A stretch of DNA of 64,000 bases from Botryllus schlosseri. Taxonomy: Eukaryota. How positions within the stretch are numbered: the first letter of the stretch is position 1; every line of letters begins with the position of its first letter. The DNA is taken from positions 21,330,001-21,394,000 of the forward strand of contig CM119372.1 of NCBI GenBank assembly GCA_051294905.1. Direction: 5' to 3'. The position numbers were made by a program, and so were the translations under genes. Of the stretch, positions 10,807 to 51,380 are shown in pieces. The notes under the pieces are model-generated. The model was not told the DNA's origin and ran no database searches. It saw only the letters and a list, made by a program, of their open reading frames with translations.

Positions 10807-10844
10807 GATCTCCGTTTTGCACTCGGGATAATTTTTTCATTCTT

Positions 10845-11109
10845 TTACGCAATTGGTCTTTCGCACATGGCTGAATACAGACCTGTACATGAGGCGTCTG
10901 CTAGCCCGACTACCGTTCCAATAGTCTGAAGCCAAGCCATGCAGCCCTCCCTTATCCCTAGGTTCGGCTCTCCACTCGCCCAGGCTGTGATATCTTTCGT
11001 ATCTAACACTACAGAATCTTGGAAGATCCACGAGTTTTCGGTGATGGCGTCTGATCCACCGACGAAGTAAAGCGTACCGTCAGGAATCCTCATTGCAGAT
11101 TTGTCGAAA
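10845..11109 (-). CDS. Terminal exon encoding C-terminal half of C-type lectin domain (EPN motif)
   Basis: tcttcaatctttcAG| phase 2, matching the previous exon; (S)FDKSAMRIPDGTLYFVGGSDAITENSWIFQDSVVLDTKDITAWASGEPNLGIREGCMAWLQTIGTVVGLADASCTGLYSAMCERPIA*; W..GEPN...C, LAD in place of WND, terminal CE. Confidence 0.9.
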
Positions 11110-11872
11110 CTGAAAGATTGAAGACGAGTGTCAGGTCCATTTTCGAAGGACAGGGCGCTCTCTCATTCAATGCATGGGCCTGTTATACCAGTGTGTGGGT
11201 CAAGTCATGATAGTGAATAGTGAACAGAATCCACTAGGGATGGTGTGACCATGAGGTTCACTTCACTATATGCATGGCGCTGGCAGCATAAAAATATCAA
11301 TACTTAACGCGCATGCACCTTGACAATCTCAAAAATCCTACTTGCTTTGTTACAACAGGTTGCTCGAATATTCAGCTTTCCTTTAGTGAATATTTATAGT
11401 GACTCTCTGTTGTGAGCTTGACGAGCTATGACGCAACATCAATAACGAAATACACTACATGTAGGTAGTCCGCGAATGATGCTCATTCAACCAATCAATG
11501 AAATTGATAAAACGAATACATCTTTGTCAAATGTAAGAATGTTGCAGGCCTACGGGATCCATCTTGATTTGATTTGTTTATTGTATCATAAAAACGAAAT
11601 CAGTGCGATTGGGGTGGTGGCCAACTTGTTTATGGGGTAATATCGGCAGCAAGTATATCAATGTAGCAATGTCAATGTAGCAAAAGTCATAACGTTAAGA
11701 CGTAAGCTTATGTTCGAATATTCCCTTACAATTCAGCATCGAAATTGATGCCAAAGTGACGGAAGATGTTGATTTTATAGGATTATTATAGGATTTGTTT
11801 GCTCCAGTTGACACATTTCTTGACGTTTAAAAAGTCAGCGCTGAACATGTACTTCAGCATTGTGGCACAATG

Positions 11873-12804
11873 CAGTGTTGGGATGACTCGAGTCGCCTTT
11901 TTCGTATGACTTGACTTGACTCGAGTCACTTGGCTAACATGACTTGACTTGACTCGGCGTATCAGAAATTTGGATTGACTCGTGACTCGCAGCAAAATTC
12001 ACGAGTCAATTTCAAGTCATCAAGTAATCGGTGTCGATAAAATTCACTGTATTTTGCATATGGTCGGATTGTTCGCGAAATTCTGGTGTAACCTGTGAGA
12101 GCGACCAATCATTCAATGATCGTGCGTTTTACTGAGCCTCCATTGTTCTCTCACACATAAATTGACCGCAAACGAAGTGATCCAAGCTTACAGCTTACGT
12201 TGTCGTAAACTAGTATAGTAAAATAATTCAATAACATAATGTACATTTCTATTCTCTGTTCTTACCCTAACCAAACCTCTTGTTTTATTGAAATCGAATT
12301 CGAATATAGTTTATATAGTCCTCAACCATTGGCGCACTCTCGAATTGTATCATATCAATTTGTGAATGGGTAATGTAGTGCATCTTATCAATTCGTTTCT
12401 CTATTCTCTATTTTGGCAGGTAACTATAAACTGAGGCTGTAAAATTACTTCCGTAGTTCGGCAGTGCTACGTATATTTGAGCGATACAGCGCTTTCTTGC
12501 GTGTATATTTAACTATATATTCTTTCATAGGTTCAGAATCAATGACCACTAAATCTGTAATTCAGACAGCTAGCAAAATACAATGACGTAATCATGCCTC
12601 ATACTTCAAAAAGGCAACTTGACTTGAATTGTGACTTGACTCGTGACTTGACTTGACTTGACTCGAGTCACCTCCAAAAATCGAGTGACTTGACTTGACT
12701 CGAGTCACCTTCCAAAATCGAATGACTTGACTTGACTCGAGTCAAAATGTGCAATGACTCGAAATGACTCGTGACTCGAAGATAGTGACTTGATCCCAAC
12801 ACTG
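11873..12804 (-). mobile_element. MITE family E (TIR CAGTGTTGGGAT; GACTCGAGTC / GACTT arrays)
   Basis: Perfect TSD GCACAATG; inserted in a family G element. Confidence 0.92.
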
Positions 12805-13216
12805 GCACAATGTGAGTTGAATCGTCGCTACGTATCGTACAACTGAAATGTACGGTTGGAAATAACAATATGTCGTCACGTGACGTCATAGGTTCACGTT
12901 CGCGTTTACACAGAACCTTTCAAAAAGGTTTGCGTTATATGAAAAGCGCAACTAAAGATTCAGAGATTTGATGAATTGGTAGAAGTAAAAATTGCAACGG
13001 TAATTCAGGAATATATAAAATTCTAGTTCCACTGTACTACTATATCTTCCAAGGGGATCTATTACACTACTGCTACGACATTGTTCTTTGGCGCCCTTAG
13101 CGTCCCAGCCCCCACATCACCCCGAGTGCATCCGCCCCTTCAAAATCTAAATCCCACCTGGCGGGCGCTGGCGGCCAGGTTAAGAACCGCTGTTATAGAT
13201 CATACTGTAACTAGAA

Positions 13217-14492
13217 CCGTGCTTCTCAACTTATTTCAGTTCGCGAACCACTTTTCATCCAAATTTCATTGCGTCACCCACCATACTCCCTTTCGAGACT
13301 AACGTTTTAACCATTGCATGTGGGGTCTAGTTGTCATGTTGTCAGTGTGTTTCAGTTATTTGGTCGCCCTGGCATGAACATATTCCGGAATTCATGATTG
13401 AATTCGGTCAATGATATTGGGAAATGCATATATTACTACAAATTTTAGTTCTCTCTTAGCCCAGGTGATCAGATTTACTAGTAGATCTGAGGGGGGAGGT
13501 GGTGTATTTGAGAATCTCGGCCACATAAATAATTATTAATAATTGGATTTTCGGACGGGCCCGTTGTTAGTAGGCCTAATTACTTGATTCCAACTTCTTG
13601 TGTCTTGGTGTGTCGTGTCGCGGTAATGGCCGACACCGAAATGCCTATTTCTATGGCTTATCCATTTTTTTATTAGAGGGAGATGTAACCATATTGAATT
13701 CAAGACATCTAACGGTGTTAAATCGCGCAAGGCGAGAAGAAAATTTGCATAAAGTCGAGTAAATCTCAAAAAAATATACTCCATAATTGAAGTTGACTGA
13801 TGAGATCATTTTCGCCTAGCATTCGATCCCCTTAAAATTGAGGGTTTTGGGTGCGGTGGTTACGGCTCTGTCTGTAACAAATGATTACAAACGAGGAGGG
13901 TCATCCGAATTGCGTAAGCGGTGTTTCAAAAAAGCCTGGGAGTGGGCCATGCTCCAACTCGGCAGATGCGAAATCATAATAAAGAATAGATATCGGCCTC
14001 GCGTAACTGACCATGACCATTGTAGCCGAAAAATATCATGGATAATGCAAACACCAACAATAGAGAAAGCGCGTATCCAATCAGTAATTTGACTTTTATT
14101 GGAACACAAAGTGGTTGTGAGTAGCTTGCCTAACGGCAAATCGGGCTGGATGGCTGCATTTCCCTATCAACCTTCGCAAAGCCTTTGACGAAATTAAAGA
14201 ATTCCAATTCTCAAGCATTCACAATAACGCACTGTCCGATTTCACGTTCCCACCAAAATGACTGTCACGAAAACCTGCCTTATGAAATATTGTAAGCACG
14301 AAAACGTGGCTTGTGGCGCTTATGGACGCACAAATAATATAATTTGAGGCAAAGAACGTGTATTTGCCCGTGTAATCTTGATAAGATGAGGTGTTTGAAA
14401 TATTTGGCAAAATTAGTTCGATACTTTAACATTTCGATATTCTTGGCGACTCACCAGAAATAGCTTCGCGACCCACTGGTTGGGACGTATTG
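13217..14492 (+). mobile_element. Degenerate Buster-type hAT element with nested family C piece
   Basis: Decayed TIRs; TSD AACTAGAA/AACTAGTA. Confidence 0.6.
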
Positions 14493-15987
14493 AACTAGTA
14501 ATAGAAGATACGGGTCGAAATAACTAGCTGCTAAAGTCACAGACGAAAAATGTGAAACTTGGAAATACATCGAATCACCTGCTAATCATATCAGGGGTGG
14601 CCAATCTGCGGCCGTAGAAGGAAAACTGTGCAGTATCTTCATGTAATTCACTTAGTATGTGTTGGCGGCCGTCAACATGCAATTTACATTTACGAATTGT
14701 GGCATTATGTGGCCCGAGTCGTCGCTATGTATCGTGTGCATTAATATATATCACTTAACTGAAATGTAGGGTCGGAATTAGCATTATGACGTCACGTCAC
14801 GTCATGAGGTTCACGTTCGCGTTCACACAGAACCTTTCAAAAATGTTCGCGTTCACACGAACCCGATCCTTTCAGAGGTTCGCACCATCCCTATTAAATT
14901 CATCTTTTTCATAGCAGTATTCACAACGTCATGCTCACGTTCGTGGTTGTCGTGCAAACCGCGATATTTCAGAGGTTCGCGTTCACAAACGAACCTTGTA
15001 AGGTTCTACACCAGAGGTCTCAAACTCATATGTGCCAATTTCCTAGTTGTTAGAGCCGCGGGCCGCAGGATCAATAATCGGGATATTCAATGTAAAATTT
15101 CCAAGATGGCCTTATTTGATGGGACCTTGCAGAAAGGCATTCCACAAACAACGTGGAAATGAAATTTAATAAAGTATTATTCACGCTGGACACGGAAAAA
15201 ATCACATTTTCAAATATTTTAATGAAATTGATTTTGTGCCGGGCATAATTTTTTAATCAAGACATCGTCAAAATCTCGGGTTGTAATATTGCAGCTTGTG
15301 CTTCCAATGAGATTTCTCGTAGCCCCTGGCCATTTTCAACACAATTTCTGATGGTACCTATATTAAAACCAGAAAGCCCATTCACATAAAATCGCGCGTA
15401 TCGCGAGGACCATTTTCCAGTTGAATAAATTGGTCAAGAAAATAATCCACAGCATATAGGCCTAATTCCACAATGCATCTCGTACACTCTGATGTGGTGC
15501 TTCGTAACCCGATGGGGTATACGGACCCTGGTTATAAGAGCCGCTGGAATAGAAATGTCCGATTGGCGAAGAATTCATTTGTGTTACAGCTGTAGAACGT
15601 ACTGCTACCTTACTCGCCACCGATAATAACACGGATAAAGAGAACAAACAACACCCAGCATGTAACCAACCATACGACACGGTTCACGGAGGTCACAGAA
15701 TGCCAATGATAGCCATACTGACCTGAATAGACAGCTATGTACACTATGCAGCGCAAGCTACGACCTTCTGATAAATTACTCTATTTCCCATTACAGTTTC
15801 ATAGATTGTTGCGTCCGTAGGATAACCAAGTCACCGTTCTGAGTCGCAAGTCCTCTTATTTAAACGTTTGACCCGACTCAACTCGAGTCATTTTTATTTA
15901 ATCACCCAGTCAATCCGAAATCGAATAATTTTACAAGAAGGTCGCACCAAACCAAATCACAATTTTCAGTCGCGAATCATCAATGGG

Positions 15988-16245
15988 CAGAGGTGGTCAG
16001 TAACGAAGTACTTGTACGTTTTGAATTACTTGAAGTAGATTTTGCCTACTCACACTGCTTTTTAAGTAGTTATGATTTGAGGCTACTTCTACTTCTACCT
16101 GACAGTTTTCAGTGTTGTAGGCAAAAATAAGCGTAGAATACCTACTTACTTGTAAACCACCGCTCCTACTTCTACTTGAGTAGAAATTTCGGCATTACTT
16201 CTACTTCTACTTGAGTAGCGATGGTGACTAATTTGACCACCTCTG
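15988..16245 (+). mobile_element. MITE family A, short derivative
   Basis: Both TIRs present; TSD TCAATGGG/TCAACGGG. Confidence 0.85.
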
Positions 16246-16569
16246 TCAACGGGTCATGTTTTATCATCATGAAATAGGAATGTGACGTAATAGCTGATCT
16301 TCTACCGCATGGTAGCTTTTGAAAGGGATGTGATGGTGAAGTTTGTTGAGATTTCAGTGATTTTTATACTATAGTTTCAAGATGAACTTCAAGTTCTTAT
16401 ATCTAAAAAGATATATGGCACTTGAATATATTGTTGAATACTTGAAATTACAAAATGCCGTTGCGGGCTGCACAAAATGACCATGACCAAGAAAAAACTA
16501 ACTAGCATTAGCCTAACATTTTATGGCATGCCTACGTCATCGTTGAGTGCTCGGCCCGTTGGTCTAAAA

Positions 16570-17285
16570 CAGTGGTTCTCAACCTTTTTTGACACGCGCC
16601 CCCCTTGGAGATGGTCAAAACAATCGCGCGCCCCCTGACCCCCCCCCTTGCATTTATCGTCATGTCAAAAAGAGCACATCATCTAATACAAAATAACAAA
16701 GAAAACATTGAACAGGACATCCATTAATTAATTTCAAGGTAGGTCACTACAATGATATATCATGTATATATATCATTGGTCCCCCTGAGACTAATCCTGA
16801 TGCTGGTAGTGAGTACAGAGAGCAAGGCGTCGTTCTATCCTGCCAGGCTAAATTTGATCAGTTTTGGAAATTAATTAAACTATGTTGATTTATAGCCTAA
16901 TTGAGGGCGAAACCGGGGAACCTATGTTGCATCTTAGTATAGTAAGCAGTGCAGTTCGCAAGCTACTAACAAGAGCTTCCCAGCGCGACAAGCTTTAGGC
17001 TACTGTCAAAGCTATGAAGCAGCGAATGATTTACACGTGGAAATTGCTCTCTATATCTCCAAAGAATTTCAAAATTTTGCTCAAATGAAGTTGAAATCAG
17101 ACTATACTCCGTTAAGCGCGGTTGCTAGTGTTTGTATTTTGCATGCTTAGTTGCTTACTTGAATATGGAATAAATTTCATCTTCAATAATCGTCTTCTCA
17201 TAATGGATGTGAAACACATGTTCAGACACGTACAATTTATACTGACTTTGTCAATTTCTCGCGCCCCCCAGGTTGAGAACCGCTG
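16570..17285 (+). mobile_element. Buster-type hAT MITE (TIR CAG[T/C]GGTTCTCAACC)
   Basis: Perfect TSD GTCTAAAA; uninterrupted counterpart of 40518-42015. Confidence 0.9.
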
Positions 17286-19148
17286 GTCTAAAATGAAATA
17301 ATGAGTTTTACCCGCGCACTGAGTAAGGTTATTCATTATTGATGAAACTACAAATGACAGTTAAGTTCCGCGCTGCCAAATTGTTCTTGGGCTGAAAATA
17401 TTCCTTGAAAATCCCTACAATATTGGCCGCGGGGAAGTGGCCTTTGGAGGGAGAGAACTAACCCTGAATTTCAATAACATTTACCGACAAGTTCTTATAA
17501 AATAATGATAGGCCATTTCGCTCCAGTCATACCGTCGTGAGTGACATCTTTCGAATGACACCAAGCGCACTCTGATTACTGAAGGAGGACTAGTACTCAG
17601 GCAATATCTTTTACAGACAGGTAAATTAGGTTTACAATATTTTTGTGGCTCAAATCCCGGACACTCTTTAGCGCCTACTAGCAGGGTTTACGATGAGGTA
17701 CGAATACATTGTCAGTCTGTATGACGTCACACTAGTAAAGCTTTGCCTATCTACTGTATACTAGTATACAGGAGTGGAGAGGACCATAGGTTATAAATTG
17801 AGCCATCTCTATAGTGAGCTCTGGTGTTTGCTTGGTTCTGCAACAGATTTCTTCACGGACAAGATGAAATCGTCTGGTGGACCTTATCCGGTCCGCCGAT
17901 CGTGTGTTTGACAGCCGTGATATATTGTTAGGTCGGTGCTGTTATCTGCTTGTGTGTTGTAACCAGGTGCGAAACAAAAATTTTTCCATCCCCCTTCCGC
18001 CCAAAACTCCACTGACCTTGAGCCCATCATCGATGCAGCTTACTGCACGAATTTGGTTGTGAAATTTTGTGAATTAATTCTGTCAATAATATTGGTTCTT
18101 CCATATATTAATATAAAAAGCACCGGAAGGTTGCACATCCGGGGATTTCCAAATTGTTATGGTCGCGACCTCATTTCCAAATTGAAAATGTTCCGTGGTC
18201 CAGCTCAAAAATTGATAGGCTGATTACTAACAAAGGTCAGCATGCTCAGGATCACTCGCGGCCTATTTTGGAAGCTGATAATGTTCAACATCTTCGCGAT
18301 CCCCAGGCTAAAGGCAAACGACCCCCATGTTTAGAACAACTGTCTTTGACTAAACACTAAGCATCCAAACGGCCTTAACCAACTCAATGAATATACCGTT
18401 ATCTTAAAATTGCGATTACAATTATAGGCTTATTTCAGTAAACGATGGTTATTTTTATTAATTTTGATTGCATTTTCTGCGAGGGCGGTGCGCGGTGCAC
18501 TAAATGAAAATTTCAAATATCATATATTTGCTTTGAAATACTATTGTTTATGTCCATTTACGAAAAATATTTGAGCCTACTTCAAGCCTTCAAAATTCCA
18601 GACATTTCGGCATATTTTAAATTTCCTCCCGGACGCAGTTTTTACAGTTGAATTTTGGACATGTCCGGGAAATTCCGGACGTATGGCAAGAGCAACCCTA
18701 ATAGGGTTAACATATTTAGGAGATCTGAAAAGACGACACTCTTTAAAATTTACAGACTTGCAAAACCGGAGGAACATCCTGTAAAAATGGTACATTTTTC
18801 CCACTTCGTGGTCGGTTGACTAAAACAAATAAATCAACTTTCCGGCCCAGCTCCCAAAATACCCGCCGGAGCGTTACTTCAGTGCTGATTTACTGTATGT
18901 AAGTATATTCTGCCATATATTTAACCAAAATTATCGAAAAAGAGGGCATTTGGGCGTCCTCCGAGGACACTTTCGAAAAAAGTTTTAAAAAAGAGGACAA
19001 ATCCTCTTAAAGGAGGACGTATGGTAACCCTGCCATACAACATCCGACACATATAAGTTAGTCCGAATCGGGATTCGAGCCTCTGCCATTGGTGTCGTGA
19101 CGCTGGTGCTTAATCAACTGCACCACTTGCTTTCCCACAACTACGCAC

Positions 19149-19658
19149 TAGGGCTGGGCACAATGATTCGAGTGCTCGAATCTGAATCGAGTATCAATTT
19201 TTATGATTCGAGACGAGTAGAAAATACGATTTTTTCGAGTACTGATATTATACGCTCCTCGTCAATGAACGTTAATTTATTAACGAGGATTATAGTTTCC
19301 ATACCATTATCCACTGCAGAAGCCTTGACACCTTGATTAGTCGTGTCGCAGCATGCGAAACATATAGTTCAAAGCTACGAACGTTGCTGGAAATGATACA
19401 TTTCTGAATTACTGATCATCCCTCAACATTGTCACAAAGTTCAATGAAGTCGGTACGGTCGAAAAATTACCAAAGTATCTTTAAAATAATCGATAACAGA
19501 CATTATATTCTGGTGGTGTCATAAAAGGTACATATTTTAACTTTGACATATTGCATTCTGTTATGACATCATAATGAGTGATACTCGAATACTCGACTCC
19601 ACGCAAAATATGGGATTCAGAATCGAATCAGTCAGGTATTCGATTTTGCCCAGCCCTA
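19149..19658 (+). mobile_element. MITE family F (TIR TAGGGCTGGGCA, TCGAAT repeats)
   Basis: TIRs at both ends; related copies at ~4150-4435 (-), 27732-~29100 and 61890-~62270 (-). Confidence 0.75.
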
Positions 19659-19694
19659 TAGACACGTACTAGCTCAGCAAAGCTCTGCTATATA

Positions 19695-20998
19695 CAGAGG
19701 TGGTCAAAGTAGTCAAGAAAGCTACTCAAGTAGAAGTGAAAGTAGCGACGAAAAAATCTACTCAAGTACGAGTGGAAGTACTTCTTCAACAAGCTGCCTA
19801 AAACTACTTGAAGTAGAAGTAGAATTGACTGGCTTTAAATCTACTCAAGTAAGTAAGTAGTTTTGAAAACAGTCGTAATTCGTTCGCATGGACTGTCAAA
19901 AGCTGCGAATTGAGCTATGCGGAAGGTGCAGAGAGCTTGATTCGTATTGATGCATCCCAGTAGGTATCAATTTTTGACAGAATAAGCATTCTTTCACATC
20001 ATTGGATGCAAATTTTAGTATTGATATGAAAATGCGATACTAACCCTTTATTTACTAGAAGGCCCCGTTTTAGAGAATATCATGGCATGAAGCCCTACCC
20101 CATATTATAAGGCCCCAAGTTTAGGCGAAGAGCAATACGTAGATATTGTATCGAATACGGTTTCATCACTTTGCGCGACGTTAATAACAAATATTGTGGA
20201 TCGTAACAGTTATAATTAGTGCAGCTTTGTTTTCGGAAAATAGAGACATTACTCGCATTTATGCTTCAGCATGTATGTTCTGCAGACAAAAGAACTGAAA
20301 GTAATTGGAACTCAAAGTATGGTACTCGCAATTGAAAGTGAAATACAAATACCACTTCTAAGAAGCGGAAAAAATATTTCATGTCTTTTGTCCATAAAGC
20401 TTCAAAGATGATCTGCTAAAACAGGCGTAACGTTCAAAAAGGCTGGATTTTCCAGATTAGCAAGACACGTAATGGGCTGCTAGATTACGATATGATAGGT
20501 AATTGCTAGATCGCAAAACGGTAGTTTCAAACGTTATGGTGGGCCATATTTACTGTGATGAAATATTTGATTTGGGCGACAATGCGGTGTGAGCGGAACC
20601 AAGCAATCCGGTACCGGGGCCTACCATAAGTTATCGTAGGACCCGCCGGTACCTAAATCATATTCACGGATACTTTCGTGAATACATTTCTGTCACTCCA
20701 TAACTACTGTTCGCAAAGCGCAACAATATTTCTGGGCTTTACTTGACTTTTATGAATAATTGATGTTGGTACTCCGTTCAAAAAGCCCCGAAATTCCGCA
20801 GGCTATCTTTCGTATTGCGAGAATAAACTACTTCTACTTGACAAACTGAAAATAGCGAAAAGTAAGTAGATCACAAAATATTACGAATCGGAAGTAGAAG
20901 TAGAGAAAATCAGATCTACTTGAGTAAATACCAGAAGTAGAGGAAAACTACTTGAGTACTTCCATAAAGTAGAAGTACTTCGTTACTGACCCCCTCTT
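19695..20998 (-). mobile_element. MITE family A, full length
   Basis: TIRs present; TSD GCTATATA/GGTATATA. Confidence 0.9.
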
Positions 20999-21333
20999 GG
21001 TATATATAATGCAGCGATAAATGGTATTTATGCTACTTACCTTCAATATGAACCGCATTGACTTTCTCGAAAAGAACTTTTCATTATTGCATTTGATATC
21101 ACATTTTCCGCAACGGATGTGATCCGGCGATGAGCAATGCCAAGTCGATGGTCATCAATTTTGATAAAAAATATTGCTACAGCATTTGGTTGCTTTTTGA
21201 GCAGGTTCGAAGTGAATAAATAATAATCTTTACAACGTTCCTTTTTGTGCATGCGATTTTCCAAATTTCTAAGGGGCGCATACCAAGTAGGACCACGAAC
21301 TTTGGTTTCGCACAGTCCGTACATGTAACCGAC

Positions 21334-21493
21334 CTGGATAGATCGCCATTTCTTGCTGCCACCGTGGCGAGACGCGCAGTTGAGTCCATACTTGAGCAGG
21401 AGGACGTTGCAGCGGCGTATGATGTTTTGGTGCTCAAGTATCTGTATTCATATCCATTCGTATGACGATACCATCCATCACTAGTGAACCCAA
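21334..21493 (-). CDS. Exon encoding N-terminal half of C-type lectin domain
   Basis: gtgtttttttttcAG|...|GTCGGT; phase 1 in, phase 2 out; (V)GFTSDGWYRHTNGYEYRYLSTKTSYAAATSSCSSMDSTARLATVAARNGDLS, with the CTL pattern Y..A...C......LA. Confidence 0.85.
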
Positions 21494-21679
21494 CTGAAAA
21501 AAAAACACAATAACGCTTAAGCAACAATTTACACCTAGCTGATATTAACGGAATGAATACATTTCAGTTCATGCAGTATATGTAAAATGTAACATTATAT
21601 ACACGGGCCTCACGTCAGCTGAAAATTTCCAACTGATTAACTAATGTGTCCAAGAATACGTCTCACCAAACATACTTAC

Positions 21680-21736
21680 CAGATTCGTGGCCCAGTTTAC
21701 CATCAAAGGCTTCGTCGAACAGTTAAGAAAGTAAGT
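21680..21736 (-). other. Candidate 57-nt phase 1-1 exon with in-frame TAA (DLLS*LFDEAFDGKLGHES)
   Basis: atcttgttAG|...|GTAAGT consensus donor, 186 nt upstream of the first CTL exon. Confidence 0.45.
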
Positions 21737-21907
21737 CTAACAAGATTTATATATTTGGAAATAACTCGACCAGTGCTTTGCTTTTCAACCTTTTTGAGCT
21801 CCATTCCCACTTTTTTTTAAATTTCATTCGCACCAGCTCGCTGGAATTTATTACACAAAAATAAAACGGAGAAAGTTATAACATTTGTTTTTGACGAGCT
21901 TCTAGGA

Positions 21908-22163
21908 CAGTGGTTCTCAACCTGGAGGGGGGAGCACGCGAAGAAGCGGTCAACTGAAAATAATGTTCGCGTGTTTCTCTAAAAATAGACCGAATTTCAT
22001 ATTTTTGAATTCTCTCATCAACAGTCATAACCTTCCATGCCATCAAACAATCTGTTCGGGTTGCTAGCATCCCGGTTGGATTTTGCGATGTGACGAGAAG
22101 GGGGGCGCGAAGTTTTTCGTATCATAAAGGGGGGCATGTCTAAGAAAAGGTTGAGAACCACTG
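21908..22163 (+). mobile_element. Short Buster-type hAT MITE
   Basis: TIR CAGTGGTTCTCAACC; perfect TSD TTCTAGGA. Confidence 0.9.
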
Positions 22164-22500
22164 TTCTAGGAGGTACTGAACTTCATTATTTTATATTCAG
22201 CGTATCGTATTCTTTATTGATCAAGTACTCAAATCACTGCAGTAGAAAATTCACAGATATCGCACTCCCGTTGTTCTCAATATGTTCGTTGCTTTTTGCG
22301 GGTGTATCGTGCAGTGATTTCCTTCGAAGCTTAAAGGGCGAAGCCAAGAACAATATTCACTCGATACAATATCATTTTTCCACTAAAAATCGACATGTTG
22401 CGTTCTCGCGATATGAATGTGTTCGCATTTCGAACGTAGCCTACAATAGAATGAAACTGCACTTGAATCGTAGCATCAATGTTGCGAATAGGATCTGTGG

Positions 22501-23807
22501 CAGAGGTGGTCAGTAACGAAGTACTTCTACTTTTTCAAAGTACTCAAGTAGTTTTCCCCTACTTGTGGTACTTACTCACGTAGATCTGATTTTCGCTACT
22601 TCTACTTCGTAATATTTTGTGATCTACTTACTTACTTTTCGCTATTTTCAGTTTGTCAAGTAGAAGTAGTTCAATCTTCCAATCAGGAAGATAGCCTGAG
22701 GAACTTCGGGGCTGTTTTCACGGAGTATCAACATTAAATTTTCATAAAAGTTGGGTAAAGCCCAAAATTTTCGTCGCGTTTCGCGCGCAGGGGATAGGGG
22801 CTATCAGTATGATTTCACGATTGTATCGATGAATATAATTTAGGTAGCGGGTTGGCGTGGTTCCTTTCACACCACATTGTCACCCTTCGCACATAGGAAA
22901 TAATTCATCACAGTATATATGGCTCATCCTAACGTTTGAATCTGATGTTTCGCAATTCAGCATTTACTTGTCATATCGTAATCTAGCAGTCCATGGCGTG
23001 TCCTAACCTGGAAAAGTGGCGAAAAGTGGACTCTGACATTTTTTTGTTCGTTTTAGAGGTGTTTAAGCATACCACCTTTGAAGCTATATGGACTGAAGGC
23101 ATGAAATACATGTTCCGCTTTTATAAGTAGTATTTATGTTTCACTTTCAATTACTAGTATCATGTACTTTGAGTTATAAATGATATCAGTTCTTATGCCT
23201 GGATAACATACAATACATGTTGGAGTATAAAAGCAAGTGTAGTAATGCCTTTAATTTCCAGAATTAAAGCTACTAAATATGGCATTTTTTCGGTCCACCA
23301 TATTTTTTAGTAACGTTTACTAATCGCGCAAAGTGTTTACACCGTATACTATACAACTTCTCCGTATTGCTCTTTGACTGAACTATGGCCTTATAATATG
23401 GGGGATGGCGCCATACCATGCTATTTTATAAAACGTGCTGTTCGAGAAAACAAAGGATTGGTATCGCATTTCCATATCAATACTATCATTTTCATCCCAT
23501 GATGTGGACCAATGCTTATCTATCGAAGATTGGATATCTGCTGGTATGCATCAATATGAATCAAGCTCGTCACCTTTCGCATAGTTCAATTTACACCTTT
23601 CCACAATCCATGTGAACGATGAATTAGGATCGTTTTCACAACAAACTACTTACTTGAGTACTTTTAAAGTCAGTCAATTCTACTTCTACTTCAAGTAATT
23701 TTTGGTTGCTTATGGAGGAATTACTTCTACTCGTACTTGAGCAGATATTTTATTCGCTACTTCTACTTCTACTTGAGTGGCTTTCTTGACTACTTTGACC
23801 CCCTCTG
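22501..23807 (+). mobile_element. MITE family A, full length
   Basis: TIRs present; TSD ATCTGTGG/ATCTTTGG. Confidence 0.9.
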
Positions 23808-24301
23808 ATCTTTGGTTCGTTTTCTGACAACATTCGAAAAGATGCTTCACCGTACAGAGGCATTTAAGCCGATGGGATGGTACGGTGGGCGTTAAAAACA
23901 GGAATGCATTGCTATGCAAACCCACCCAATCCGAGTAATACATAATGGTTATTTATGGATAGGCTTTGGGCTTCATTCACTTCTTATCTATGCAATACAC
24001 AAATCAACAAATCTTTCAAAAACAACCTGCAGTATCCTCGTGGGTTGCAAAGCCAACACTTGCATCTTCTTGAATAATTATTACTTACATACACAAGATT
24101 CATGATCAACACACAGTTATATCGGCCAGGATTGCCAACTGCGGGATGGCTCTTAGGGCAATCGCACAATATTGACAAACTGACTGACAGGATATGTATG
24201 ATTTGGAAAGAAGATACTAATGGTGGTGGACCTGCATCATGATTGAGGATTATTTGCGTTCCATCATACCAGCAGATTTCTCAGTTCATGGACCCAAATC
24301 A

Positions 24302-24876
24302 TGCAAACAAAACCACTTCGGAAATATTTTGAAGTGTTTCCATCATTTTATAATCTCGCCAACATTTGTGCATATTCCTTCTTTTTGTTAGTGTGTTTGT
24401 AAGTCCAATAAGGAATTATGCGGATTATTACAGGGTAATTTTGAGTAAAACGAGAAATCAGAAAAGGTGACATTTCTCAAAGACTAGGGACACTTCAGAA
24501 TTTTTTTTGTCTACCAGTGATTGGTTTGAAACGGAAAAACACAATACCTAAAAATTTTTACTCCACTAAAACTTTGCAAAATTTTGTTACATGGTGATAT
24601 TTTTCGTCCATAAAAAGAGAAGATTTCTCATTTCACAGATGTAAGTCACGAAAACAAAACCACTTCTAACCATTTTAAAAGTATTGCATTGTTACTGGAT
24701 GTATGACTATGAGTAAGCTATATTTGTTCGTATTATTCTTCTCATTAGCGTTTTCCTACGTCAAATAAATAATTATTGTGATTAATACGGAGAAATAATG
24801 AGTAAAATAAAAACACAATAAATAAAAATTTTAGGCAAACTAAAACTTTTGAAAATTTTTGTTACATGGTGATATT
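24302..24876. repeat. Diverged local tandem duplication
   Basis: aaacaaaaccacttc at ~24305 and ~24653; actaaaacttt...ttttgttacatggtgatatt at ~24565 and ~24839. Confidence 0.7.
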
Positions 24877-25213
24877 GCAAAGTTTGTAGTAGGCTACAAA
24901 CGAAGGCGGTACGAATACGAAGTGGGCAAATTTTTCCTATGGATCAGCAAGTCTAGTGGCCTACCTAATTAATGAAATATATGCCTATGCCTCAACGATC
25001 TAGACTCGGCGTGAGATCATCAGTCCAAGAACAAGAAAGCGTGTCTAAACCTTAATGGTGTAGTTTTCATTACCAGCAGGCTATTCCAATGGTCAGTAGG
25101 AGTATATAAACTGCCCAGTAATCCGATGTAATGCAAGATACAGATTCATCGGACATAAGACATCAATGTGCTTACTCTAATTTTATTTTTAACAACCTCT
25201 AATACTTGATTAG

Positions 25214-26068
25214 TAGGGCGTTTTTTTTGACATGTCAAAATTTGTCAAAATTTCGTCAAAATTGTAGCGTTAGGTCAAAATTTGTCAAAATTTTTCATGA
25301 AGTCAAAAAATGTTTAACGTCTGCATTTTGTTTGTATCGTAGATTTTGCACTGTCGGTGAACTTATAATTTGATATTTTACCGCTGTTAGCCTATTTTAT
25401 AGGCCTACCGTTGTAAGCGGCTAATCGTCTGCTAATCGTGAATCATAAACGGCTAAATAAAACAAATAATAGGTAGGCATGGTTTTATGGTCAACGTACC
25501 GCAATATCCTAACTGAAGAAAGACTTCTTGTGCATTGCATCATTCTTATATTAAGAAGCCCATGATGAAAATTTGTGATGTAGAGAACATTGTCAGAGTG
25601 AAGCAACCCGGTGTGTCACCAGCACCAGCAGTGTACGCACAACTTGAGTGTTGTCAGCCAACAACTGCTGCTGTTGAACGTCCTTGGCAAGCTTCTTAGT
25701 AAGGACGTGCACTTTCTACCCAAGAATGTAGGAAAGTATCTTTGGTTGTACTACAAAATATTTTAATATTTTCTGCCATAATACATATTGTAACCACTGT
25801 AATTCTTCATAGGGCCAGATTTCGTTAAAATATTGTTTTTTTTTCATGTAAAAAGTTGCCTGTTTCTAAGCCAAAAATGCTTTTTAAGGCCAAACTACTT
25901 CGTTAGGACAGTCAGATCCAACCAGAAATGAAGATAAGTGGTACAATTTTAACATTATGTGGAAAAACACCTAATTTGCATACGTTAGGTCAAAATTTCG
26001 TCAAAATTCATTTTTTTAGGTCAAAAAAAGTCAAAATTTGGATTTTCAGGTATAAAAAAACCGCCCTA
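25214..26068 (-). mobile_element. MITE family B (TIR TAGGGCG, GTCAAAA subterminal repeats)
   Basis: Perfect TSD TTGATTAG; inverted copy of 31469-32349. Confidence 0.92.
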
Positions 26069-26237
26069 TTGATTAGATACACGAGTAAGCAACACCCGTA
26101 ACAAATCTTATTCGCTAATTGTTATAGTTGAAGAAAGTCGTAAGTGCAAACGTGATAAACACCAAATTCTGGTGCCAACCAACATGAAGAGCATATGTGC
26201 CATAATTCCAATACTTTGCATTCAAACACGCCAAATG

Positions 26238-27236
26238 CAGGGCCTAAATAGCATTTCGTCAGCCCCCCAAAAAAGTGTTGGTCTTGGGCCCCAATAGGGT
26301 GATGAACCGAACCTCTGGGGGCTTAGCCCCTCCAGACCCCCCTCAGGTTGTTCGTTTTCGCCGCAACTCAGAGATTTGTTGTACTGTTCAGTGAGTCGTC
26401 TTATTTCGTCGCGTGAATTGTCGCGTGTATATTGCTATAAATTTTTTATCCCTTCTGCTCATGTAATCAGATTTACCGGTAGAGTTGAGGGAGGTGTCTT
26501 GGCAACTGTAGGGTCCGTAACTAATAATTAAACATATTCGGGCCAGCGGACCGGTGGTATAATGACTTCGTTAGGTGATGTTATTTCGTGACCTTCTTTC
26601 TACTTTGTCAAACAATATTGACATCGCCCATACGTACTAAATCAAACGACGCTCATGATTTCAAATTGGTGATTTCTTCACAGGCAAATTGTTTTTCCAT
26701 GCATGATGACATTTGTCTTGTGGAATTCAGATTTGCAGGACAGGAACATTCGACGCCAGCCATTTAGTCGCGAAGGTCTTCTCGCTTCGATCGTTCTGGC
26801 ACACTTCTGACAGTGGTATGTTATTAGGGTTACCATATTTTGGAATGGGGAAGGGAGGACACTTTTTCAAAATTATGAGACTTCCAATAGTGGAGTAAAA
26901 TCCGGAAAAATGGTAAATTTATCACGAAATTGTGGTTCGACGTATGGTAACCCTAATGTTACATGGCCTTAAACTTTATATGTTTCGGTGCGTCGTGACG
27001 CAGTAATAACCGACGTCGAAATGCCCATTTCTATAAATCATGCTCATATTTTCTTAGGAGAATAGCACCCAATAATCAAGATATTTGTCTACCTTAATTC
27101 GCACACAGCGCGAAAAAATTTGAAAAAGTTTCCTAAATTAAAAAAACTATAATTTATGCTAATTCACAAAATGCACGACCCTATTCGAGCTCCGACCCCC
27201 ATTTGAGGGGGTTGGGGTGCGGCAGGTGCGGTCCTG
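26238..27236 (-). mobile_element. MITE family C, with a short family D element at 26825-26955
   Basis: Degenerate TIRs; TSD GCCAAATG/ACCAAATG. Confidence 0.75.
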
Positions 27237-32349: not shown

Positions 32350-32492
32350 AATATGACATTTCCTTGTCCAATCTATGAGATAACAATTGCGTATGTGTCC
32401 GAACTCGTTGACCTTTCCAGTTAGGCATACGCAATCTCTCGATTTATAGTCATTTCCATTTCTGCAGATAAGTAGTCAGGTCAAGTGCGAAC

Positions 32493-34587
32493 ATGAATCG
32501 TGTTGAATCTTTGCTCCGTACGCCGTTTAGCCAGCTGCCTTTAGAGCAAAAATTAGAGGTAAAGCGACTAGGTCCGTATCAGCCTAGAAATTGCCCATTG
32601 ATCCAATCGTACGCCGGAGGAAAGCGCACTCGTGCCTTTTCTTCAGCGCATTTCGATAAAAATGAATGGCTTACTTATGGCGAGGATAAAAACGCCTTGT
32701 TTTGCTTTTACTGTCTTTTATTCGACAGTGCCGGTACCGGAAGCAGTGGCTCTTGTTGGAACAAAATTGGTTATCGCGATCTGAAGCATTTGTCAGAGCG
32801 TCTGAAAACGCACCAAAAATCCCAAGTGCACATGGCTAGTGCAGTTAAATATAAATTGTTTGGCAGAGTAAATGTAATGTCGCAGCTCAATGAAAGTTAT
32901 CGCGTATCAGTCTGCAAGCACAATGAGCTTGTAGATAAGAATAGGCATGTTCTCTCTCGGGTGATTGATGCCATTAAATTTATTGGAGTTCATGAATTGC
33001 CCCTTCGAGGCCACGATGAGAAGGAATGCTCTCTCAATAGGGGGGTATTTTTGGATCTAATTAAATACACGGCTTCCATTGATAGCATTTTGCGCGAACA
33101 TCTCGACACCGCGACAGTAGCTAAGGGTACCTCAAAGACTATTCAAAATGATGTGCTTGATTCGACGTATCACATCTATCTGCAGCATTTGTTTACCGAG
33201 ATTGTTGACGCTGAATTTCTATCTATTCAGTCTGACGAAACAACTGACATTACGTGTTTGTCACAACTAGTCGTGATTTTTCGGTTCACGAAATTTGGTA
33301 TGCCAGTCGAACGATTCCACAGCTTTGTGGCTGTTGACGATCGCACTGCTGTCGGAATTTCTTACGTATTAAAAAAAAACATTACAGCCCTATTCGGTTG
33401 AGTCGAAACTTATTGCGCAAACCTACGACGGCGCAGCAGTCATGAGCGGATCGCGACATAGCGTACAAGTTTTAATGAAAGAAGTTTACCCGCATGCGCA
33501 TTTTTTGCATTGCTACGCGCATCAGCTCAATCTTGTAGTGAAAAAAATGTGCTTAGGAATATCTTCTGTCAAGATATTCTTTGCAAATCTTTCAGGGTTC
33601 TCCTCCTTTTTCTCTGTTTCGCCAAAGCGATCTGATCTATTGCGCGACATATGCAAGCACCGGTTACCTAGATGCGTATCAACACGGTGGAACTTCCAAT
33701 CCAGAGTTGTGCAACGAGTGTCAGAGAGTAGGGTGGAGCTTCTGGAATGCTTCTCAGTGATTGAGAGCTCTCCTGTCTGGGATGATACTTCCATACGTGA
33801 AGCGGCGGGGCTTAAACGACTCCTGGAAGACGAAGAATTTTTGTTCTTTTTGAAGCTTTTTTGTGACATCTTCATGCACGTCGATACACTGTACAGCACT
33901 TTTCAGTCGCGTATGGCCGATGGTACTACTGCGCAATTGTGTATTGCACATTTTTGTGAGGCAATTTCGCATATCCGGGCGAATGTACACTTCGCTGGTG
34001 ACACAGCGCTTTTACGTCGTGGGATAAGTGTGCAAAACCTGCTTGTTGCGGCTTACGAATGTTGCGATATACTGATGTCCCAAATCCAACATCGTCTGAA
34101 TAGTGACCAGTTGGTTACTTTCGCCCTGTTAAATCCGAGAAATTTCCCTGCCTACAAAATTCATTTTCCTTCTGGACTACTGCGCAGCGTGCCTCGTTAT
34201 TACCCGATGATCGACATTGCTCGGTTGGAGAGCGAGTTGACTTGTTTGTATTCTAACACATCCTTTTCGGAAATTAAAACCACTAGTGAACTTTCAAAAT
34301 TCCTAGTTGAAAATTCGCTTTCGATCAACTTTGCTACAGTAACTAGCTTTCTGAATATCATTTCGACCACCCCGATTTCATCCGCGGAATCCGAGCGCAG
34401 TTTCAGCACATTGAAATGTATCAAGACCTTTCTCAGAAACAGGATGGGCCAAGATAGGCTTAATGCGTTGGCTGTTCTCTCGATTCACAACGACGTGGTT
34501 CTGGGAATTCCAGATTTCAATAAACTCGTTATTGAACATTTTGCTAATAAGAAATCACGTCGCGCACAATACTTATACAAGACATAA
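32493..34587 (+). pseudogene. hAT transposase (ZMYM1-like: TTF zinc finger, DUF4371-type region, DDE core, hAT dimerisation domain), split by one frameshift
   Basis: ORFs 32493-33401 and 33442-34587 join if one A is removed from A9 at 33371-33379, giving LKKTLQPYSVESKLIAQTYDGAAVMSG (~697 aa). Motifs: WL...LFCFYC, LRGHDE, DETTD, YDGA, CYAH, TRW, ESERSFS, LRNRMGQDRLNALAVL. Confidence 0.9.
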
Positions 34588-35588: not shown

Positions 35589-37365
35589 TAGGGCTCTTCA
35601 ACCGGGGTTATCGTACCCCCTAGCTAGGGTTTACCGAAATGTTAAAAGGGTGTACCACTCAGATGGGGTGTACTGGGGTGTACCATATACGCATTAAAAC
35701 GGACCAATGACCATAGCCATCACAGTTTCTGTATCAGAACATGTAGACCGAGTACGCAATATCGTACAATGTTCAAATCAACTGTACGCAACTTGTAAGT
35801 TACATCCTTTTGCGATGTCAGTAAGCAAATGCTTCTTCTCATCGTTTAAACGTTGGTAATGGACTTATTGATAATTTGTGAAGTAGAACACGATGGAGTT
35901 GACATGTGTTCAGCTTGCGATATCTGTCTATAATGATTCTTGAGGAATCCGTCACGAGATTTCAGAAATTTTGAATTGGTTCTTCCTGCGATATGCTTAT
36001 GAATAGCACAGTGTACATAATTGCAGGGCTCCGTGGACATATGAGCAATGGGCATGCGAGATTATAGCATGCGACACTTGGGCATGCGACAATTGGGCAT
36101 GCGACAATTGGACATGTGACACATGAGCGTGTGGGCTAAATTACGGGTTAGGGGTGGGTTAGGGTTGAGTTTAGGCTTGGGTAAGGGTAAGTCTAGGAGT
36201 TAGGGTATATATAACATCTAATTTCGGGGTTATGTTTCGGGTTAGGGTTAGTTTTAGGGTTATAAGGTCACATGCTCAAATGACGCATGCTAAAGTGTTC
36301 AATGCTCAACTATCGTTTTCCATTGTGTCGCATGGTCATATGTCGGGTAACTAATTGCAGGGGCGCAGCCAGGGGTCTCGGCTGAGGGGGTCGATTTCGA
36401 GAACCACTGTGTTCGATTATGGTCCGATAACATCGAGCCCTGATTATTATTCAGCATTCTCAACATTTTGCAGCCTTGTTCATCCTTATTTCAACAGGCT
36501 AAATGTGGCCAACCTGCCGACGAAAGGTCGCCTGCAGCCATTTCACAATAATTTTGCGGTCCTCTACACGTTATTAAATTTATATGTGTTGGCGGCCGTT
36601 AACGTACAATTTGAATTATCGAATTGGTTTCTAAATATTTGAGAGATTTTAATTAAAGTTTAAATCTTATTCATGCTTTGCGGGATTCAGGATAACTTGG
36701 ATATTTGGTTTTAATTATAATAGTGTAATCTTTGCCTCCCTGTACAATCGCCAATCGCAGAGGCATACGCGAATTGCAGAGGAAAATGATGCACCCCATA
36801 CGGAAACACCAAGTCGGAATCGTGCGCGTCTCGCGCATGAAGGTTTTTCTGGTAGGCCTACGTTTTGGCGATGCCAATATATATTTTCACTATGCCTACA
36901 ACCCTGATGGGACGTCGAAAATGACAACATGCAACAATTTTAATGATAAAACCGGGAAATGCATCATCATTAATTGTGTGTCCAAAATTTTCGAAGACAC
37001 CTCCTGCATCAGCAGCTCTACAGGTTGTTCTGATCACGTGGGCTATGGATCAATATTTTAAAGTAATATATGAAACAAACAATAGTATCGCCGAAATTCA
37101 TTTTCCAGGCTGAAAATTTTTTCAGAGGAATCCAGTTTACATTTTCCAATTTAACTTGAGTATATGACGTAGAGATGGGTCATGGCGATTTCCCGTCGGA
37201 ATGCCATATATCTAATCGAAATACGACCATGAATACGACCAAAAGGTTGATCGCCCCCGTGCTATAGGCTTACTACGAAATCAACGTATTATATGATCAG
37301 GGGTGTACGAATTTCGAGTAAACGTTAAAAGGGTGTACCATGACGATAAAGGTTGAAGAGCACTG
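35589..37365 (+). mobile_element. Buster-type hAT MITE containing the telomere-like element
   Basis: TIR-like TAGGGCTCTTCAACC / GGTTGAAGAGCACTG; perfect TSD GTATAGGC. Confidence 0.8.
36030..36348. repeat. Foldback element: inverted arrays of 15-bp units around a degenerate (TTAGGG)n core
   Basis: Left units GGCATGCGACAATTG; decayed inverted units on the right; core GGGTTAGGG-like at 36145-36262. Confidence 0.75.
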
Positions 37366-39087: not shown

Positions 39088-39204
39088 CAAATGAACAATA
39101 TCCTTGTCCGGTCTCCAACCCGTTTTGGCATTGACGATTACGATATCTAACGTCGTTCGTGGTACATTCCGTCCAACTTCCCCATGTCACGTTGCAAGCG
39201 GTAT
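39088..39204 (-). CDS. Internal exon, thrombospondin type-1 (TSP1)-like module 1
   Basis: ttctatcgtcAG|...|GTAAGG; 117 nt, phase 1-1; (D)TACNVTWGSWTECTTNDVRYRNRQCQNGLETGQGYCSF with WxxWxxC and RxRxRxC motifs. Confidence 0.85.
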
Positions 39205-45900: not shown

Positions 45901-46277
45901 ATAGATGCACGTTGAGCTTTTTAACTGAATAATGCGGCTATGCTATTTTTCTTCGATTTTTCTCTTGTGGTGGTATTTTTTCAACCATATCTATATTTCA
46001 TTGCACTTTGGGGCAACGCTGTGGGTTGATCATGAATTCAAAAATATGTTATATTTCCAGTATAGGTGTGCGATATTAGATAGGAGTCACTAACCTAGAC
46101 TCACCTTGAGAATTTTTCTCCATGAGCCGTTGAATTTTTTCTTCAAGATTCCCGTATTCTAGAATAGGATGGCGGATAGCGCATTAAAACATATCCATCA
46201 AGGTTATCGTTTACTTGCATATGAAGTTGGTTGCACCAGATGAATAACAAGTTGGCTGCAGCGTAATTCTTTCACAT

Positions 46278-47568
46278 CAGACTTGGACAACTAGATAATT
46301 CTAGTTTTTAATTTCACTGAATTAGAGCGAAATGCAAGTAATCTAATTCTAATCTAATTTGTGAAGTGTTCCTACGCGATAATTTTAATTCTAATCTAAT
46401 TTATTGTTTTCCTGAATATGCCTCGTAGTAGTTAATGTGACGAATATTAGCCATGCTGGCATAGTCAACTACACCAAGAAAAAGAGGATGATTGCTTCAG
46501 ATCTAACCAAAGAAAATATATTAGAGGATGAAGAGGGAAATGTTTCGCATCAGAGAGTGAGAGCATGGTCTGTGATGTTTTGAGTTACTGAAAAAGTGAA
46601 AATCGTTTTCCTCATCTCAAGGCTGCTGCTCGAGAACTCGTAGGCCTGACTGCAACATCGGCTCCAGCCATGCTGGAAAACTGTATTGTGCAGGGGTCGC
46701 CAACTCAAAACAGGTCGCGAGTCACTTCCCGGCCGTGGGCCGTGGGCCGCAAGAATGCAATATCGAGACCAATATAGTTGAGTAACCACGTTTTTAAAAC
46801 TTTATGTTAGTAGCCTACAACACCTTGCTCACTAATATGTCTGATGGTCATGGTTATCACAAAAGAAGGAATATTTTAATAAAGAAGTACAAATATGACA
46901 AGAAATATCATTTATCATAAACTTCATTTAATTTTGAACTATGAGCTTCGCACGATAGCTGACACCGATTTCGAGAGACTAATGAAGAATCCATACTGGG
47001 CTTAGCTAGACATGCTACTAGCCGTAAAACTATCTCATCCGAAAAGTTGATCTTGTGGGGACGTTCTATACCGTTTTCTAAGCGCCTCGGTCTTGGCAGT
47101 GCCAGGGCCATTGCACGTCAAGCCAATATGCTTATAAGTTTCGGCGGATTCAGTAATTCTAAATCTAGTCTGATTTGGAAAAAATGCGTTGCTCTAATTC
47201 TAACTCTAATATACGAGGCGAGATAGCGTAGTGGTATATTCCACAGCGGCAACACCAATGGTTGCGGGTTCGAGTCCGACCGAGGTCGACTCTAGAATTC
47301 CAATCTACGTGTTGGAAGTTTGTCTATTTGGCTTCTCGTCGCCACGTGATCCGTGTCAGTGCTGTCTTATAAAAAGCCTAGAAGTCGGCCGTGCTACAAG
47401 TCGGTAAATACGGAATTAAAGTATATCGGCCTGGTGTAAAATGACCCATGCAGTCGAACACCATGAATATAAAAAAATCTAATCTAATTTGGAAAATGAC
47501 TGTGTACCTCTAATTCTAATTCTAATCTAATTCGGAAAAGCTGAAAATTGTCTAGTTTTCAAAGTCTG
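46278..47568. mobile_element. hAT-like MITE with CTAATTCTAAT repeats, hosting a SINE
   Basis: Imperfect TIR CAGACTT[G/T]GA.AACTAGA; TSD TTTCACAT/TTTCACAA. Confidence 0.7.
47217..47477 (+). mobile_element. tRNA-derived SINE, full length
   Basis: A box TAGCGTAGTGG (47224-47234), B box GGTTCGAGTCC (47267-47277), A-rich tail. Partial copies at 55418-55645 (+) and 8147-8335, 39465-39606, 37690-37787, 4180-4269 (-). Confidence 0.85.
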
Positions 47569-47696
47569 TTTCACAAATGAAGCCATTTCCGTGAGGCGTC
47601 AGCAGAAATCATTCTATTTTGCAAAACAGTTGTAGAATATTCACAATAAAATGAACCGCGAAGGGTTCAAATATGCCCATACCCTATTCTACTAAC

Positions 47697-47871
47697 CTCG
47701 ATACCAAGTGCCTTGAAATTGAAAATGAAGAGTGAAGATTGCCGCGAATACAGCGATTGCTGCTGAAAGTAGTAAGATTGCAGCCACTCCCTTCACAAAC
47801 TTTTGGCTCATTCGACTATCTGCCTTACCCGATTGTTGATAGTCACCTAAATGGAAAGAGTTTCTTGACAT
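47697..47871 (-). CDS. Exon 1 of predicted type II membrane TSP1-TSP1-C-type lectin gene (cytoplasmic tail + signal anchor)
   Basis: Reads MSRNSFHLGDYQQSGKADSRMSQKFVKGVAAILLLSAAIAVFAAIFTLHFQFQGTWYR-G, then donor GTTAGT (phase 1). Hydrophobic stretch preceded by Lys residues. Alternative in-frame ATGs at 47928 and 47811, so the start is uncertain. Confidence 0.7.
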
Positions 47872-51372: not shown

Positions 51373-51380
51373 CTATAGAT

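Follow-up and report, generated by a model that had tools for sequence, protein, structure and literature searches.

Vertebrate type II C-type lectin receptors, such as CLEC4A/DCIR (5b1w), mincle (3wh2 and 4kzv), Dectin-2 (5vyb), and langerin (3p7f), carry one C-terminal lectin domain with an EPN-type sugar site on a coiled-coil or short neck. The same terminal domain and the same type of site are predicted for a gene on the minus strand of a 64,000-nucleotide stretch of the Botryllus schlosseri genome (assembly GCA_051294905.1, contig CM119372.1, positions 21,330,001 to 21,394,000), hereafter the window, and its lectin head has some of its best solved matches among these vertebrate receptors. 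The neck is where the predicted protein differs most visibly: if the joints between the exons, which we infer, are correct, the neck region consists of two cysteine-rich beta modules resembling truncated thrombospondin type 1 repeats (TSRs; Pfam TSP_1), with no coiled-coil or short neck. Further differences from the vertebrate receptors are the LAD motif in place of WND, a short lectin domain with four cysteines encoded by two exons, and a model without an immunoreceptor tyrosine-based inhibitory or activation motif (ITIM or ITAM) and without a charged membrane residue. With a TSP1-derived rod in place of the neck, the protein would represent a design so far undescribed among type II lectin receptors.

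In the accessible parts of the relevant papers, two ascidian proteins, BsCD94-1 of Botryllus schlosseri and CiCD94-1 of Ciona, are described as type II membrane proteins with a single C-type lectin-like domain; for BsCD94-1, a short tail, a tie to allorecognition, and closest similarity to NKR-P1, NKG2D, and CD94 are given (PMC3322459, PMC9505182, PMC5465252). Compared by description only, BsCD94-1 is similar to natural killer (NK) receptors, whereas the head of the gene considered here matches calcium-type lectins, and those parts of the papers mention no TSP1 stalk. NK receptors are absent from the listed solved matches of the head, both for exon 5 (0 of 39) and for its profile (0 of 39). 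The lack of a protein match of exon 5 in the range of 154–2000 amino acids (aa) at E ≤ 0.01 argues against identity with BsCD94-1, provided that BsCD94-1 is in the collection.

Tandem TSRs with a terminal lectin domain, as here, are known from rhamnospondin of Hydractinia symbiolongicarpus, a secreted protein of 726 aa with eight TSRs and a SUEL-type rhamnose-binding domain, for which a role in immune recognition was proposed (PMC3269628). However, as far as the accessible part of its description goes, rhamnospondin has no anchor, its lectin domain is SUEL and not C-type, and its modules number eight and not two. The W-x2-W-x2-C motif was found in two of the 72 proteins scanned, and both of them, XP_066270066.1 of amphioxus (P0030) and XP_033108741.1 of a crinoid (P0003), combine TSP_1 and Lectin_C in one chain, as is predicted for the present gene. 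These uncharacterised predictions are 736 and 3326 aa in length, respectively, and contain 3 and 14 lectin stretches along with CUB or HYR domains; their TSP1 modules are full-length and score above the Pfam cut-off, whereas the stalk modules here are truncated. The architecture had been called unusual in an earlier sequence-only reading of this DNA. This holds for the order of the parts, for which the searches made found no described family, but TSP1 and C-type lectin domains as such do co-occur in the crinoid and amphioxus mosaics. A literature search, covering few subscription journals, revealed no work on a TSP1-stalked type II C-type lectin. A tunicate phenol oxidase with TSP1 (PMC9395347) was set aside, its design being unrelated according to the accessible part of the source.

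The gene spans 37 kb, and its five exons join into 834 nucleotides (nt) encoding 277 aa and a stop codon, with no internal stop. The introns are 8492, 9192, 8285, and 10,224 nt in length; all four begin with GT and end with AG, and their phases are 1, 1, 1, and 2. The minus-strand exon coordinates, splice sites, phases, and open frame reported by the sequence-only reading were all reproduced when rechecked. Exon 1 as modelled (47697–47871) encodes a 27-residue basic tail, a hydrophobic stretch at residues 28–50, and a short ectodomain start, and ends in a phase-1 GT donor (GAG/GTTAGT). Exons 2 (39088–39204) and 3 (29779–29895), each of 117 nt and in phase 1-1, encode the first and the second candidate mini-TSP1 module, with four cysteines each and with one and two N-glycan sequons, respectively. 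Exon 4 (21334–21493) encodes the N-terminal third of the C-type lectin domain, with Cys169; the coding part of exon 5 (10845–11109) encodes the C-terminal two thirds and the stop, and it contains EPN (237–239), Glu244, LAD (259–261), Cys246, Cys264, and Cys272. It is followed by a probable 3′ untranslated region (10645–10844) with ATTAAA at 10806, which is covered by contig X1 record 1. All these features lie on the minus strand. Neither 117-nt exon is present in the list of open reading frames (ORFs) of at least 80 aa, as had been stated before. Exons 1, 4, and 5 are unique within the window, while exons 2 and 3 each overlap a 76-nt self-match, most likely of one to the other. Neither a tblastn search with the model nor a scan for W-x2-W-x(1-3)-C revealed additional TSP1-like or lectin exons within the window, and none of 14 other ORFs of at least 110 aa has a Pfam match above the cut-off.

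The coding nature of the stalk exons is evident from their comparison. Exons 2 and 3 are 55% identical at the protein level, with 8, 10, and 20 differences at codon positions 1, 2, and 3; the Nei–Gojobori proportions of synonymous and nonsynonymous differences are pS 0.73 and pN 0.23 (Fisher p ~1e-5). Since pS exceeds pN, both exons have been kept coding since their duplication, and judging by this pattern they are a duplicate pair under purifying selection. On the minus strand of the window, the combined motif W-x2-W-x2-C-x(3-8)-R-x-R-x-R-x-C has two occurrences, those in exons 2 and 3; the plus strand has none, and none arose in 100 simulated sequences (first-order Markov model, both strands read). 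As the motif never arose in the simulations and the stalk exons differ mostly synonymously, a chance origin is unlikely, and the coding gene is real.

The consensus of the stalk modules is C-x3-W-x2-W-x2-C-x5-R-x-R-x-R-x-C-x10-C, 39 residues in length. Both W-x2-W-x2-C and R-x-R-x-R, as well as the three-stranded shape of the best AlphaFold model of exon 3, are common to the stalk module and the TSRs of CCN3 (6rk1), BAI1 (TSR3, 7r84), properdin, and MIC2, but a TSR has about 50–60 residues and six cysteines, against 39 residues and four cysteines here. The canonical TSR is described, in the accessible part of the source, as having six cysteines with a CSVTCG motif (PMC7663992); compared with it, the stalk module lacks the second cysteine of this motif and the last cysteine, and one disulfide and a long loop are gone. 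The Pfam TSP_1 profile gives 10.4 bits (E 0.78) for exon 2 and 14.7 bits (E 0.035) for exon 3, both below the cut-off of 21.6, and Atlas relates exon 3 to TSP_1 clusters at 0.90–0.93, with recognition below the threshold. When the exon 3 model was compared with 48,161 chains by VIA-align, TSP1-type structures occupied 10 of the best 50 rows, including ranks 1 and 2: CCN3 (6rk1; Z 3.4, root-mean-square deviation (rmsd) 4.0) and BAI1 TSR3 (7r84; Z 3.4, rmsd 2.4 over 37 residues with 27% identity). The listed rows also include MIC2 and the POFUT2 complex, which we take to be TSR matches, and midkine and pleiotrophin. Two mini-TSP1 modules had been claimed for this gene: the tryptophan and arginine motifs are indeed present in both, whereas the sub-threshold Pfam scores and the four cysteines do not fit a full repeat, and motif, Pfam, fold, and Atlas together point only weakly to TSP1. 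The stalk module would therefore best be called a TSP1-derived mini-module rather than a canonical TSR. By analogy with the known pairing of TSRs, the cysteines would be bonded first to third and second to fourth, as in F-spondin-type repeats; C-mannosylation sites are expected at the tryptophan motifs, and the O-fucose site would be lost.

In a search with exon 5 against the PDB, a herring-type II antifreeze protein (2py2, E 2.8e-5) and mincle (3wh2, E 1.4e-4) were found, and a four-sequence exon 5 profile matched CLEC4A (5b1w) at E 1e-6. The best solved matches of this profile are calcium-type lectins (CLEC4A, mincle, langerin, and mannose-binding protein); the tunicate lectin of Polyandrocarpa (1byf) was matched only at E 0.009. 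Pfam Lectin_C matches exon 5 alone at E 0.036, below the cut-off. Exon 4 weakly matches the N-terminal end of codakine, a lectin (E 0.7), and exons 4 and 5 together align across their junction with the lectins P0056 and P0072. The four core cysteines of the lectin domain are Cys169, Cys246, Cys264, and Cys272. From these alignments, the head is a C-type lectin domain of a short form with four cysteines, encoded by two exons. EPN (237–239) and Glu244 align with the EPN and glutamate of calcium site 2 of mincle; at the position of WND, LAD (259–261) retains the aspartate, while the asparagine ligand is replaced by alanine and the tryptophan by leucine. The prediction of a C-type lectin domain with EPN and with LAD instead of WND is thus borne out by the alignments with 2py2, mincle, and CLEC4A. 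The fold model of exon 5 has a mean predicted local distance difference test (pLDDT) value of 50.5, too poor for reading the sugar site.

A search with exon 5 among 1.84 billion representatives gave 70 matches at E ≤ 0.001, among which three single-domain fragments stand out: P0001, P0002, and P0006, with 57%, 56%, and 45% identity to exon 5. Their sugar-site motifs are EPN and LGD, EPS and LGD, and EPD and LAA, respectively. All three are singletons from contigs of about 1 kb and can be aligned from the same methionine in the last exon; Atlas assigns P0002 to Lectin_C at 0.94. Across the four aligned sequences, the Glu-Pro of the EPN motif is invariant (4/4), and the aspartate at the WND position is kept in three. 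The P0006 fragment, with EPD, the aspartate lost, and a shorter loop, is probably a non-calcium-binding member of the family. These sequences suggest a small lineage-specific family with a drifting sugar site. The protein databases were searched with single exons. The sole match of the exon 5 profile there, an amphioxus lectin-fibrinogen protein, was rejected as having only the generic domain in common. Among metagenome stretches, the lectin profile matched none of 596, and the three of 68 matched by the stalk profile were rejected, since they shared only the seed and lacked the arginine motif or the later cysteines.

In codakine, the asparagine and aspartate of WND are direct calcium ligands, and bivalve lectins with an altered WND (EPN with WFD, EPN with ISG) are nevertheless classed as calcium-dependent, according to the accessible part of the source (PMC12842671, Table 4). 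Since the asparagine ligand is lost here, yet such altered-motif lectins depend on calcium, binding of calcium and sugar by the head is possible but not predictable from the motif. A head that binds a protein or peptide rather than a sugar via calcium, like vertebrate NK receptors or CiCD94-1, is a rather doubtful alternative. The WND position reads LGD, LGD, and LAA in the relatives, against LAD here; EPN gives way to EPS and EPD in two of them, and CiCD94-1 is described, in the accessible text, as lacking carbohydrate binding (PMC5465252). On the other hand, the Glu-Pro invariant in all four sequences, the aspartate kept in three, and the calcium-type lectins as the best solved matches speak against such a head.

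The 5′ end of the gene allows several readings. The frame of exon 1 is open to 47958 (ORF 47692–47958), and an earlier in-frame ATG at 47928 would give a 19-codon N-terminal extension (47872–47928, minus strand), with an acceptor-like site at 47948 just upstream. The context of this ATG has G at −3 and +4, whereas the ATG at 47871 has T and T; a start at 47928 yields a 46-residue basic tail without an ITIM or ITAM-like motif. Inside the modelled exon 1, there is an alternative phase-1 acceptor with a pyrimidine tract ending in TTTAG (47847–47861, minus strand). Splicing at 47847 would give a symmetric 150-nt membrane exon, and the tail would then come from an unseen upstream exon. Additionally, a donor-like AAG/GTAGGT at 47891 (47886–47894, minus strand) could be used with the 47847 acceptor, so that 45 nt of the tail would be removed in frame as a mini-intron. 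Each of the three alternatives (upstream ATG, internal acceptor, and downstream methionine) alters the tail; the modelled N-terminus is therefore putative.

The hydrophobic stretch itself comprises 20–23 residues, and the best 19-residue hydropathy window (2.65) begins at residue 28. The 27-residue modelled tail has five basic and two acidic residues; four basic residues are found in the 15 positions before the hydrophobic run, and one basic and one acidic residue in the 15 after it. All 12 cysteines and all three N-glycan sequons lie on the C-side of the run. Neither an ITIM nor an ITAM is present in the modelled tail, and the membrane stretch contains no Lys, Arg, Asp, or Glu. Given the length of the run, its basic N-side, and the position of all cysteines and sequons after it, type II (N-in) anchoring is the best reading and is predicted here. 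The transmembrane stretch proposed by the sequence-only reading is supported in its hydrophobicity and its basic N-side, but the start codon assumed there is not fixed, as 47928 and 47847 compete with 47871.

The true tail may be longer than modelled, owing either to an unseen exon spliced into 47847 or to a start at 47928, and may carry tyrosine motifs, making the protein a self-signalling immune receptor. The clean pyrimidine tract with TTTAG at 47847, its phase 1, the symmetric 150-nt exon that it would define, and the better start context at 47928 favour such a tail, and vertebrate type II lectin receptors commonly have the tail on an exon of its own. Nevertheless, the frame upstream of 47847 is open and contains ATGs, so an extra exon is unnecessary; a narrow scan of 47950–64000 for upstream exons combining an ITIM- or ITAM-like motif with a strong phase-1 donor gave no candidates, and the 46-residue tail has no such motif. 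A longer tail of this kind is rather doubtful. The third alternative places the start at Met21; the hydrophobic run would then serve as a signal peptide and be cleaved off, leaving a soluble TSR-TSR-lectin protein. Met21 is followed by six residues with two lysines and then by an Ala-rich hydrophobic run, but two in-frame ATGs lie upstream of it, and a hydrophobic run of 20–23 residues is long for a cleaved signal. Rhamnospondin, in the accessible part of its description, offers a precedent for a secreted protein of TSR repeats with a lectin domain (PMC3269628). On balance, we regard secretion as quite improbable. The rival readings partly overlap.

Four runs of the same species were used for mapping of RNA and contigs onto 10500–30200, which comprises exons 3–5, with exons 1 and 2 outside; the output is dominated by intronic repeats, and 15 of 424 joints and 16 of 20,485 pieces are listed. 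The contig set X1 is presumed to be RNA by guess, and X19 is of unstated kind. Contig X1 record 8 (308 nt, two mismatched letters) covers 21352–21493, ends exactly at the exon 4 acceptor, and continues for 165 letters beyond 21493. Exon 3 and the intron end have two letters in common, and plain matching would therefore extend this record to 21495. Because the record stops two letters short of that point, its partner piece would fit a place inside the mapped stretch, namely exon 3, if the convention of the tool is understood correctly. We infer the stalk-to-head join (exon 3 to exon 4) on this basis. Contig X19 record 10 (212 nt) covers 10941–11111, with 41 letters beyond the exon 5 acceptor; three common letters were expected and two were observed, which an allele difference could explain. 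Contig X1 record 1 spans 10645–11093, that is, exon 5 and the likely 3′ untranslated region. It passes ATTAAA at 10806, and over about 450 nt it departs from the window by 25 letters and 4 gaps, which suggests a divergent allele or a close paralogue. Contig depth per bin, in which exon and intron are not separable, is 2.64 and 12.5 over unique intronic sequence at 13785–14441 and 1.84 and 4.16 over the exon 4 bin. That exons 4–5 are a lectin gene of their own, with exons 1–3 belonging to another product or usually skipped, is the least probable alternative: it would agree with the absence of the gene's joints from the 15 of 424 listed, with the in-frame joining of exon 1 to exons 4–5, and with inverted repeats of 837 nt around exon 3 that could favour skipping, but exon 4 has a phase-1 acceptor and neither a start nor a signal of its own, the window yielded no other exon that could supply an N-terminus, purifying selection acts on the stalk exons, and record 8, under the convention assumed for the tool, stops where a partner in exon 3 would make it stop.

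We slightly favour the reading of the product as a surface lectin of type II, the head of which is raised by two rigid modules and binds glycans of microbes or other cells with non-canonical specificity. In such a protein, the uncleaved hydrophobic stretch would anchor a single-pass chain with the N-terminus inside and the C-terminus outside. The two truncated TSP1 modules would each be a rod of three strands with two disulfides and stacked Trp and Arg residues; together they would form a stiff glycosylated spacer, which would replace the coiled-coil neck and hold the single short-form lectin domain off the cell surface. As the head retains most of calcium site 2 (EPN, the glutamate, and the aspartate) but not the asparagine and tryptophan of WND, it would most likely bind glycans, with altered or weak, avidity-dependent specificity. 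All 12 cysteines could pair within their domains. Since the model has neither a tail motif nor a charged membrane residue nor a spare cysteine, the receptor would capture or adhere, and it could signal only via a partner or an unseen upstream exon.

Several observations weigh against the anchored, stalked lectin. Every Pfam match of the exons of the gene falls below the curated cut-off. Only one of the five AlphaFold models of exon 3 is confident (pLDDT 82, against 44–57 for the other four); none of the listed VIA-align rows reaches a Z of 5, with unrelated beta-propeller blades tying at Z 3.4, and Foldseek with this model found nothing at E ≤ 0.001. At the N-terminus, Met21 would yield a signal-peptide-like start. 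None of the splice joints of the gene is among those listed from the mapping, and the raw RNA depth over the exon 4 bin is 0.1 (X23) and 0.56 (X21); as this corresponds to only a few reads, expression in the sampled RNA is low. A search of sequencing runs listed none recorded as RNA that contains the sequence, a blank that does not bear on expression. The relatives, being last-exon fragments only, are silent on the stalk and the anchor. The searches for a full-length relative were negative, although weakly so: none of 67 candidates at E ≤ 0.01 for exon 5 among proteins of 154–2000 aa, one of 7921 for the exon 5 profile among proteins of 157–2000 aa, which has only the generic domain in common, and none of one candidate for the stalk-exon profile.

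The introns are rich in repeats, and sequence with another copy inside the window makes up 40% of it. An inverted repeat pair (25214–26046 and 31515–32349; 837 nt, 94% identical) lies on either side of exon 3; read depth suggests that it is a high-copy repeat, and in the pre-mRNA the two arms could base-pair, favouring skipping or circularisation of exon 3. Intron 2 contains, on the plus strand and antisense to the gene, a hAT-family transposase (32472–34587) in two overlapping frames of 309 and 404 aa, whose overlap (33373–33401) lies at an A-run. Pfam identifies DUF4371 (E 2e-16) and Dimer_Tnp_hAT (E 8e-11) in it, and the flanking sequence scanned showed no terminal inverted repeat accompanied by a target-site duplication. 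At 36049–36262 of the same intron, a tandem array with a 15-nt unit gives way to degenerate GGGTTA runs that resemble telomeric sequence. The window also has a dispersed repeat, about 1.3 kb long, in three copies (2084–3432, 22501–23810, and 57052–59795), with further inverted copies near 1–1100 and 19695–20997.

Both stalk exons are symmetric, and exon 1 also joins exon 4 in frame. Because of this, and of the inverted repeats around exon 3, isoforms of differing stalk length are possible. A far-reaching extension of this idea, which we think improbable, is an undescribed polymorphic family of invertebrate-chordate receptors with a skippable two-disulfide TSP1 spacer (0, 1, or 2 modules) and a varying EPN/EPS/EPD head, acting in self/non-self recognition by blood cells. 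Lineage-specific shuffling of lectins is common in marine invertebrates, and nothing here links the gene to allorecognition or fertilisation. The 39-residue module with four cysteines would be among the smallest TSR-like units in which folding and C-mannosylation could be studied. As such stalk exons are too short and diverged for the Pfam cut-offs, genes of this kind are probably missed by annotation. A variable family of lectin receptors in a sea squirt would supply candidates for recognition by blood cells, for which few receptors have been characterised.

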